From IMG/VR virus record IMGVR_UViG_2681813226_000005: a DNA stretch of 6,660 nucleotides; one strand, 5' to 3'. Both the position numbers and the translations under genes were made by a program. The notes below the pieces were generated by a model, which was not told the origin of the DNA, searched no databases, and saw nothing but the letters and a program-made list of their open reading frames with translations. This document shows, in pieces, positions 1,166 to 2,236 of this stretch (positions are counted from its first letter, which is position 1; every line of letters begins with the position of its first letter). The DNA is from a virus. Its lineage: Duplodnaviria; Heunggongvirae; Uroviricota; Caudoviricetes.

Positions 1166-1390
1166 ATGAAAATCAGATATCATGATTTCGGCCCCGTGTC
1201 ACATATGCTTATTTCAAGTACGGTGCTGGAAACAAGAAAACATAATCACATACTGGATATGCTGCGTCTTGCTGACCCGTATCTGGTAATAAACACCAGT
1301 GGAATTTTCTTTCTGAGAAGCACTGTGTCAGGAAAAACATCGCATGTGCTTCGGGCATATAAAACAGCAGTGCGGGAGGAAGGAGAATGA
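1166..1390 (+). CDS. Hypothetical small protein (74 aa)
   Basis: ATG with a weak GGTGA Shine-Dalgarno. Its stop overlaps the next gene's start (ATGA at 1387-1390), suggesting translational coupling. No recognisable family. Confidence 0.4.
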   Translation: MKIRYHDFGPVSHMLISSTVLETRKHNHILDMLRLADPYLVINTSGIFFLRSTVSGKTSHVLRAYKTAVREEGE

Positions 1391-1743
1391 GCGAGATTAA
1401 CTATCAGGAGCTGCGTGTTGAGCTGGGAGCAGCAAAAAAACGCATAGAAGAGCTGGAGGCTAATCGTGTGGTGCTTGAGGTGGAAAATGAGAGGTTGAAA
1501 CACGCAATGGCCGTAGCCCTTGAGCATATATCCGTCACAGATGCAGGACAGGCAGGTGTCGCTGCAATGATTATCTATGATGCCATGTACCACAGTGAAA
1601 AAACTGACCCCTACGCTTTTCTGGCAGAATTGCGGGCGCAGGGTGTGGAGATGGTGCGCGAACATCCAGCAATCAAACTTTGCTCTTTGACGCACATATG
1701 TGACGAGTTAGTCGCAGAGCTTCGCAAAGGAGGCAACAAGTGA
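1387..1743 (+). CDS. Hypothetical protein (118 aa) with an N-terminal coiled-coil-like segment
   Basis: Strong RBS GGAGGAAGGAGA directly upstream of the ATG. The N-terminus has a heptad-like pattern (ELRVELGAAKKRIEELEANRVVLEVENERLK). The stop overlaps the next start (GTGA). Confidence 0.65.
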   Translation: MSEINYQELRVELGAAKKRIEELEANRVVLEVENERLKHAMAVALEHISVTDAGQAGVAAMIIYDAMYHSEKTDPYAFLAELRAQGVEMVREHPAIKLCSLTHICDELVAELRKGGNK

Positions 1744-1928
1744 GTAAAACGAATCCGGGCTGGGCAAGGCCACTTATGGCGAAAAAACATCATTATTTTG
1801 CTGAAGGTGAAATAACAAGTATTTGCGGTGGGTGGATGTATTTTGGCAATGAGCGTGAGCCGGATACATTCGAAAGTCCAGATGATTGTAAAAAGTGTCG
1901 TAGAAAATTAAATAAGGGGGGTAAATGA
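1740..1928 (+). CDS. Hypothetical small basic protein (62 aa)
   Basis: GTG start preceded by AAGGAGG (1727-1733). Lys/Arg-rich C-terminus (CKKCRRKLNKGGK). 4-nt overlap with both neighbours. Confidence 0.5.
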   Translation: MSKTNPGWARPLMAKKHHYFAEGEITSICGGWMYFGNEREPDTFESPDDCKKCRRKLNKGGK

Positions 1929-2236
1929 GCGTAATTAAAGAAATGCCAGTGGAACGTAATGAATATGGCTGCTGGACGCATCCTGAATATGAAAAATTCT
2001 GTGATGGTCGGGAATATATTTCAACGGAAGAGTTTAACGCCTGGATGGAGAAAAATAATCTTCAGTGGGCTATCCGTAGTATGGATGAAGATGATTTTAA
2101 TCTGGACGCAGATGGCCCTGATATTTCAGCATGGGAACCTGAGCGACCAGAAGGTGAGGGATGGTTTATCGGTTCGATACATGACACCGAAGATGGTCCT
2201 GTTTGTGTATGGCTGAGAAATAAGGCCGAAGCATAA
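1925..2236 (+). CDS. Hypothetical acidic protein (103 aa)
   Basis: ATG preceded by AAGGGGGG. The protein is strongly acidic (many D/E, e.g. SMDEDDFNLDADGPD, EPERPEGEG). It is last in the overlapping four-gene chain. Confidence 0.6.
   Translation: MSVIKEMPVERNEYGCWTHPEYEKFCDGREYISTEEFNAWMEKNNLQWAIRSMDEDDFNLDADGPDISAWEPERPEGEGWFIGSIHDTEDGPVCVWLRNKAEA

Follow-up and report, generated by a model that had tools for sequence, protein, structure and literature searches.

We analysed a stretch of 6,660 nucleotides (nt) from the IMG/VR virus record IMGVR_UViG_2681813226_000005, called the window in the following, and in it a chain of four small genes. The genes are consecutive open reading frames (ORFs) on the plus strand: orf1 (1166..1390, 74 amino acids (aa)), orf2 (1387..1743, 118 aa), orf3 (1740..1928, 62 aa, with a GTG start) and orf4 (1925..2236, 103 aa). 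Start/stop overlaps of 4 nt join them on the same strand, namely ATGA between orf1 and orf2 (1387..1390), GTGA between orf2 and orf3 (1740..1743) and ATGA between orf3 and orf4 (1925..1928). A first-pass annotation made from the letters alone had described this arrangement, and the sequence bears it out. All four starts are preceded by a purine-rich motif resembling a Shine-Dalgarno (SD) sequence: GGTGA ahead of orf1 (1157-1161), GGGAGGAAGGAG ahead of orf2 (1374-1385, read in the sequence), AAGGAGG ahead of orf3 (1727-1733) and AAGGGGGG ahead of orf4 (1914-1921, likewise read in the sequence). The window is part of a lambdoid prophage of Escherichia coli O157:H7, and many O157:H7 chromosomes are 100% identical to its positions 1100-2300. 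The genes lie in the rightward early operon, flanked by the replication module (O-like gene, P and DUF1627) on one side and the hok/sok-DUF968-RusA-Q module on the other; gene order and Pfam matches confirm that they are small accessory ORFs located, as stated earlier, between the replication genes and Q.

The chain very probably consists of four separate, individually mobile early accessory genes of this prophage, whose families recombine freely with other neighbours. To see how far the genes travel together we counted them in 5,426 complete E. coli genomes, ORF2, ORF3 and ORF4 at a coverage of at least 80%. ORF1 occurs in 349 genomes, ORF2 and ORF3 in 340 each, and ORF4 in 791, at 1,219 places and with up to four per genome. 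The whole chain is present in 332 genomes. Nearly all of these copies are at least 99% identical, and they therefore represent one near-clonal prophage lineage and not independent conservation.

The neighbourhoods in more distant phages point in the same direction. Among the 80 best IMG/VR loci of ORF4, the gene is found behind at least six unrelated upstream genes: directly 5' of it lies ORF3, an 84-aa gene known from Rac-SA53 (“rac21”), an ORF1-like gene (39% identity), or one of at least three other junction types. The 84-aa gene, which is the commonest gene 5' of ORF4 in E. coli, has no Pfam match, and a rac19-like protein of 101 aa is located farther upstream of ORF4 in several loci. Relatives of ORF4 also occur in the leftward early operon (pL) of mEp460, of Salmonella prophages at icd and of a Serratia prophage, where they sit after recT (in the Salmonella prophages right after it) or before xis/int, which is the exo-xis slot. 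In lambda this slot holds ea22, ea8.5 and orf60a-63. Diverged ORF3 loci (61-80% identity) were found 34 times in IMG/VR, one of them at a contig end. An ORF of the ORF4 family within 3 kb, sought by tblastn and by a hidden Markov model search of six-frame translations, is present in only one of the other 33 (locus L111). The fixed stoichiometry of a cassette, which had been read from the overlaps, cannot be upheld in view of this independent assortment, the at least six upstream partners of ORF4, the single diverged ORF3 locus with ORF4 and the restriction of the full chain to one lineage. It is likely that the four genes are separately shuffled accessory genes and do not form one unit with a fixed complex.

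The overlaps themselves are no peculiarity of the chain. Seven of the 29 same-strand junctions in the same prophage overlap, with a length of 4 nt in six cases and of 8 nt in one, and these include DUF1482/dicB, cro/ydaT, O/P and rusA/Q. In other phages the start of ORF4 overlaps the stops of several unrelated upstream genes (ATGA, GTGA or ATGAATGA). Taken together, this indicates that the overlaps are ordinary operon packing and not a trait of this set of four genes. Within positions 900-2600 no promoter-like or terminator-like signal rises above the expectation from shuffled sequences; given this and the order of the genes on the same strand, the four genes would be co-transcribed with the replication genes from a cro-side promoter. 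Ribosomes could reinitiate at each ATGA or GTGA junction, and each gene also has its own SD motif, so that the overlaps would provide compact and roughly coordinated early expression instead of a stoichiometric complex. The four products would most likely act separately.

Each of the four ORFs matches a PHROG family of its own (E 9e-24, 7e-24, 1e-31 and 4e-55 for ORF1 to ORF4). Searches of Pfam, NCBIfam and PADLOC returned no family above threshold for any of them, the sole signal being a sub-threshold match of ORF2 to Ead_Ea22; the PADLOC library holds defence proteins, not anti-defence proteins. Sequence searches of the PDB with ORF1, ORF2 and ORF4 and with profiles of ORF3 and ORF4 gave nothing credible. 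A literature search by RefSeq protein accessions and PHROG numbers yielded no mention, and a search on lambdoid phages, anti-defence and the nin region, judged by titles and the openings of abstracts, gave nothing pointing to these genes. The earlier statement that none of the ORFs matches a nameable family has to be amended for ORF2, which is a short Ead/Ea22-like relative, and stands insofar as all four belong to PHROGs of unknown function.

ORF1 is a basic protein of 74 aa with an isoelectric point (pI) of 9.6. It matches phrog_1001 over its full length (positions 1-72 of 75) and has no match in Pfam, NCBIfam, PADLOC or the PDB. ORF1-like copies with 39-42% identity are found directly 5' of ORF4 in other prophages, and in strain 1604D011 a copy of ORF1 (93.8% nucleotide identity) is followed by two different genes and then by ORF4.

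By its sequence features ORF2 is a short, in-frame version of the Ead/Ea22-like proteins, which are modular, and consists of an N-terminal tag, a coiled coil and a C-terminal module. This link to Ea22 is new relative to the first-pass annotation. Besides phrog_492, ORF2 matches phrog_368 (E 4e-19). Its match to PF13935 (Ead_Ea22) amounts to 18.1 bits (E 0.004), covers profile positions 75-138 only and remains below the cut-off of 27 bits; for comparison, Rac-SA53 Ead scores 94.8 bits, a relative of 186 aa scores 26.5 bits, and the closest relative of ORF2 (54% identity, 214 aa) has no PF13935 match. The last ~130 nt of orf2 share 90.7% DNA identity with genes that RefSeq names ead or Ea22-like. 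The signature MS(E/K)IN.Q.LR is present in ORF2 (MSEINYQELR) as in lambda Ea22 (MSEINSQALR) and Rac-SA53 Ead (MSKINYQALR). ORF2 and its relatives in other phages, which are 186-238 aa long, have in common a coiled-coil stretch, an AFLAE(V/L)RAQGVEM motif and an LRKGGN(K/Q) tail. The heptad stretch L.VEL.AAK.RI.ELE, recognised from the sequence pattern without a dedicated coiled-coil predictor, also occurs in these relatives. They bear ~100 additional N-terminal residues of at least three kinds which ORF2 does not have: its coiled coil begins at about residue 10, with no N-terminal globular domain of ~60-100 aa before it. A fragment of larger genes, which the first-pass annotation had named as grounds to reject its view, is seen in part, and for ORF2 only. 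The C-terminal part of ORF2 found no match among all PDB chains, which we assume to include the structure of the C-terminal domain of lambda Ea22. Lambda Ea22, a tetrameric coiled-coil protein, favours lysogeny (PMC7093339, PMC10834534), and both its domain layout and its pro-lysogenic role have been described (PMC10834534, PMC7093339). By analogy, ORF2 probably oligomerises like lambda Ea22.

A further observation concerns the end of orf2. The AAGGAGG motif at 1727-1733 is encoded within the conserved tail ...LRKGGNK of the gene. In the window (1715-1743) and in four comparison loci (L002, L003, L099 and L106) very different Ead/Ea22-like genes end in (Q/E)LRKGGN(K/Q), and the codons of the LRKGGN(K/Q) tail hold the AAGGAGG ribosome-binding site for whatever gene comes next. 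The Ead/Ea22 tail looks like a conserved module boundary at which recombination swaps neighbours.

ORF3 (62 aa from the GTG, basic, pI 9.2) has the invariant residues H17, H18, C29, C50 and C53 and an invariant REPDTFES.DDC block. It is probably a small His/Cys protein that binds zinc or another metal, as its residue pattern suggests. RefSeq/PGAP starts ORF3 at the ATG at position 1776 of the window (50 aa; 1776-1928), that is without the overlap. Homologues keep G7, W8, R10 and P11 upstream of this ATG, and in many homologous loci an ATG is located precisely at the position of the GTG of the window, for example in L101, where the protein is 97% identical. With this upstream conservation, the AAGGAGG motif and the ATG at the equivalent position in homologues, the start at GTG 1740 and hence the overlap are well supported, and the RefSeq start is probably 12 codons too short.

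ORF4 is strongly acidic, as had been noted before: the calculation gives a pI of 4.21, 25 Asp and Glu residues (24% of the protein) versus 9 Lys and Arg residues, and a net charge of -16. With -0.155 charges per residue it is the most acidic of the 33 intact coding sequences in this part of the prophage, the next having -0.088. The acidity is kept across the family, with a pI of 4.05-4.76 and a net charge of -9 to -25 in 28 diverse members. ORF4 matches phrog_1372 over its full length, and the members of this family typically have 103-110 aa. Thirteen positions are invariant, all of them Trp, His, Phe, Gly, Pro or Ile and none acidic; nine positions (12, 30, 36, 54, 56, 66, 87, 89 and 90) are acidic in at least 80% of the members, and the remaining acidic positions vary. 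The AlphaFold2 model (predicted local distance difference test (pLDDT) 86.6, predicted template modelling score 0.77) has two helices and a three-stranded sheet. It describes a compact Trp-rich alpha/beta domain with a conserved DTEDG hairpin turn, and with a long acidic loop at residues 53-79 that is variable in sequence and length (pLDDT ~75). The ratio of non-synonymous to synonymous substitution rates (dN/dS) of 0.11-0.35 indicates purifying selection.

No relative of ORF4 was found among solved structures by sequence or by fold, known DNA mimics included, and a Foldseek search of BFVD returned only uncharacterised phage relatives. The profile search found 971 representative clusters at E<=1e-3, from phages of Gamma- and Betaproteobacteria, and the family has no Pfam entry. 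It is present in 83 sequenced phages, among them phages of Burkholderia, Pseudomonas, Erwinia, Vibrio, Klebsiella and Yersinia, and its proteins are annotated as hypothetical in nearly all of the 40 phage records listed. Genes of the ORF4 family occupy a median of two places per positive E. coli genome; in O157 strains, different prophages thus hold paralogous copies next to different neighbours.

Many of the representatives exceed the domain in length. We scanned 73 long relatives of ORF4 with Pfam and observed fusions to several domains, most of the partners having no known identity; the representative set is assumed to favour the longest members of each cluster, so that the share of fused forms would be inflated. 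A Lar domain lies N-terminal to the ORF4-type domain in three clusters, two of which pass the cut-off (P0159 with 38.8 bits and P0203 with 36.9 bits) while the third is weaker; one of these clusters is found in different sources, on several contigs. On a single contig, an ORF4 relative is fused to a Tad2-like domain (Thoeris anti-defence, 80 bits), and an Rv2179c-like 3'-5' exonuclease is fused to the ORF4 domain in two clusters, including a RefSeq protein of Stutzerimonas. Other partners are DHH/DHHA1, KTSC and winged helix domains, and about nine fusions contain a recurrent unnamed “EIERLDR” domain. The fusions with Lar, with the exonuclease and with this last domain each occur on several contigs. 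The largest single-linkage cluster of fusion partners proved to link several unrelated segments in a chain. None of the 73 long relatives joins the ORF4 domain to ORF1, ORF2 or ORF3 in a “Rosetta stone” fusion. The only links in this search are a weak Ead-like N-terminal extension in P0142 and a segment in P0193 that resembles the 187-aa ORF downstream of orf4.

Some points count against four independently shuffled genes. Three of the seven overlaps of the prophage sit consecutively in this chain, which is a local concentration and not a different architecture. In several loci that otherwise differ, ORF3 follows an ORF2-like gene with an LRKGG or LREGA tail, and the ORF3-ORF4 pair stands behind three different upstream contexts; some pairwise functional links between the genes may therefore exist. 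The constraint on ORF1 is weakly documented by one informative pair (dN/dS 0.68) and the PHROG match. Co-transcription is something we infer, and what we say about the functions of all four genes is predicted from sequence. Do the four products then form subunits of one complex, with the overlaps enforcing coupling and a fixed stoichiometry? We regard this as very improbable. The row of three overlaps without internal signals and the intact chain in 332 genomes would be in agreement with such a complex, but these copies are the nearly identical ones, each gene occurs elsewhere without the others, every gene has a strong SD motif of its own, and the same overlaps join ORF4 to unrelated genes. 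A four-subunit complex or obligate cassette is largely refuted by the co-occurrence data across divergent genomes. A two-gene module of basic ORF3 (pI 9.2) and acidic ORF4 (pI 4.2), acting as a toxin-antitoxin or an inhibitor-target pair, could be proposed from their opposite charge, their 4-nt overlap, the three upstream contexts in E. coli prophages and the one occurrence in L111 at 65-73% identity. We nevertheless give it hardly any probability, because 32 of the 33 informative diverged ORF3 loci have no gene of the ORF4 family within 3 kb, most ORF4 loci are without ORF3 (791 genomes with ORF4 versus 340 with ORF3), and neither Pfam, NCBIfam nor PADLOC gives a match to a toxin-antitoxin or defence family. 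A type II toxin-antitoxin pair in particular was rejected, as the pair is not conserved and matches no such family. A decay of larger genes in a defective prophage, which would have left the ORFs as fragments, also has little probability. ORF2 has about half the length of its relatives and is without their N-terminal domain, and the prophage is defective elsewhere (an integrase split by IS1203 and a frameshifted terminase in the reference copy, a rusA/Q deletion in the window). ORF1, ORF3 and ORF4, however, match their families from end to end at typical lengths (75-aa profile, 52-70 aa and 103-110 aa), ORF2 keeps its N-terminal decapeptide, start codon, SD motif and C-terminal tail and looks like an in-frame short form instead of a truncation, and ORF4 is under purifying selection. 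On the full-length family matches, the intact ends of ORF2 and the selection on ORF4 we rejected pseudogene fragments.

A greater, although still low, probability is attributed to the idea that ORF4, alone or with its neighbours, is an anti-defence protein, for instance, as the first-pass annotation had suggested, an acidic DNA mimic, which would block restriction enzymes or other DNA-binding defence proteins early in infection or after induction; DNA mimicry specifically is less probable than anti-defence in general. The conserved strong acidity, highest for ORF4 in the prophage segment, the position in the early operon in a pR or pL accessory slot, and the fusions of relatives to Lar, Tad2-like, Rv2179c-like exonuclease or DHH/DHHA1 domains may be taken as hints in this direction. 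So may the ORF4 relative directly after recT in Salmonella prophages, a slot which in Rac presumably holds lar/ralR. On the other side, ORF4 has no likeness in sequence or fold to solved proteins including the known DNA mimics, and PADLOC gives no match, its library being one of defence and not of anti-defence proteins. The invariant positions are Trp, His, Phe, Gly, Pro and Ile and none is acidic, with nine positions acidic at the 80% level, and much of the charge is located in a variable loop of lower confidence, which weighs against a classical rigid DNA mimic. A large number of partners occur in the fusions, most of them without a connection to defence, the representatives perhaps being biased to fused forms as we assumed above, and the adjacency to Lar and Tad2 may reflect a shared accessory slot only. 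Fusions, early position and acidity are equally well explained by neighbours fusing in a crowded accessory slot. It is doubtful to the same degree that the ORF4 domain forms the core of a novel, widely distributed phage family for anti-defence or host takeover, in which an acidic loop on a Trp-rich scaffold would block an immune or host protein that binds nucleic acids, and in which this module has repeatedly been fused to other counter-defence modules (Lar, Tad2-like, exonucleases). Within the reading of four separate accessory genes, ORF4 might tentatively be seen as an early protein acting on its own, which binds and neutralises a host protein, perhaps one with a role in nucleic-acid binding or defence.

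The closest known kind are the exo-xis or “ea” genes and the nin region, and the four genes are ordinary mosaic accessory genes of a lambdoid phage. The exo-xis genes of lambda (ea22, ea8.5, orf60a, orf61, orf63) and the “ea” genes of P22 are likewise small, non-essential and early, lie close together with frequent overlaps, have for the most part no known molecular function and are shuffled among lambdoid phages. ORF2 has the N-terminal decapeptide and coiled-coil design of Ea22/Ead, and it is in this very pL slot that ORF4 relatives lie in phages of Salmonella and Serratia and in mEp460. In contrast to the exo-xis genes, the genes of the window lie in the rightward operon after the replication genes, and ORF2 is without the N-terminal domain and fails the PF13935 cut-off (18.1 versus 27 bits). 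Lambda itself has no counterparts of ORF1, ORF3 and ORF4. The nin region of lambda (ren, ninA-ninI) has the same position between P and Q, an order confirmed here by Pfam and RefSeq. It contains many short accessory ORFs joined by start/stop overlaps. RusA and DUF968/HNH downstream of the chain take the role of the nin recombination genes. The first-pass annotation had named confident homology to nin-region genes as a finding that would overturn its view; comparison of ORF1 to ORF4 with the Nin families in Pfam and NCBIfam (E<=0.1) gave no match, and only the position is analogous. With T7 Ocr, ArdA and T4 Arn, which are DNA mimics, ORF4 shares small size, high acidity (pI ~4.2 family-wide), early expression and origin from a mobile element, but it has no relation to a known mimic in fold or sequence. 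Lar/Ral (PF14354) occupies the same accessory slots and is fused N-terminally to the ORF4-type domain in the three representative clusters, whereas ORF4 has no Lar domain.

Lambdoid mosaicism in a heavily sequenced pathogen will be of little surprise to the specialist. The practical outcome is that one should not regard the four genes as a single system, and that ORF4 represents a large, unnamed and confidently foldable acidic domain family which is a reasonable candidate for functional screening. Should ORF4 be an anti-defence protein, a widely distributed family would be added to the counter-defence repertoire, and this might help to explain the spread of O157 prophages and their relatives through defended hosts.

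The surroundings of the chain can be compared with a reference copy in strain PV15-279, where according to the RefSeq annotation the lambdoid prophage adjoins tRNA-Ser and mtfA. The order there is a cI-like repressor, cro, ydaT, a DnaT-like O gene, P and DUF1627, followed by the four hypothetical genes and a 187-aa hypothetical gene, then hokD, DUF968, RusA and Q, and after Q three tRNAs and then the lysis genes and terminase. For the P C-terminus, DUF1627, DUF968/HNH, RusA and Q, the window gives the same picture in Pfam and PHROG scans. The C-terminus of P lies at 40-411 (PF06992), and the DUF1627 gene (446..1144, plus strand; PF07789, E 7e-79; also annotated by RefSeq), the end of the replication module, forms the 5' flank. 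The 3' flank is an acidic 187-aa ORF on the plus strand (2363..2926), 126 nt beyond orf4. It is followed by a hok/sok type I toxin-antitoxin locus (3215-3539), with an Rfam sok match of 114.9 bits (3215-3389) and a hok-like ORF that is hokD in RefSeq. ARAGORN predicts three tRNA genes 3' of Q (6190-6439; anticodons CAT, TCG and TCT), the first of which is tRNA-Ile in RefSeq; such a set of three tRNAs beyond Q is typical for O157 lambdoid prophages.

The 187-aa ORF is a mosaic. Two mEp460 proteins match parts of it: one of 155 aa matches residues 1-45 with its N-terminus, and one of 177 aa, whose 1604D011 relative is annotated DUF551, matches residues 27-128. Residues 121-178 match the segment fused to the ORF4-type domain in P0193. 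In the 126-nt gap between orf4 and this ORF, 8 nt 5' of its start, we found a hairpin ACCGCCC GAAA GGGCGGT (2337-2354; 7 bp, GC-rich, with a GAAA loop). It has no T-run and is therefore not a classical terminator; the 71-nt fold around it has an energy of -23.8 kcal/mol (z -2.5). The slot directly 3' of ORF4 varies and behaves as a cargo hotspot: it is filled by a divergent pair annotated “sce7726 family” and “beta family”, by IS1, or, in the window, by the 187-aa ORF and hok/sok. The comparison loci for this cargo, downstream of ORF4 relatives, are L142 (3110-4745) and L003 (5464-8030).

The prophage carrying the four genes is probably defective. The reference copy has an IS1203 insertion that splits its integrase, and a frameshift in its large terminase (L001 1889-4252 and 24741-25201). 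Compared with the PV15-279 copy (L001 16243-16359), the window lacks ~117 bp at 5341-5344, a deletion that takes the 3' end of rusA and the 5' end of Q with its start codon. The RusA ORF of the window stops early at 5375, the Q frame opens only at a TTG at 5347, and late-gene activation may be impaired in this copy.

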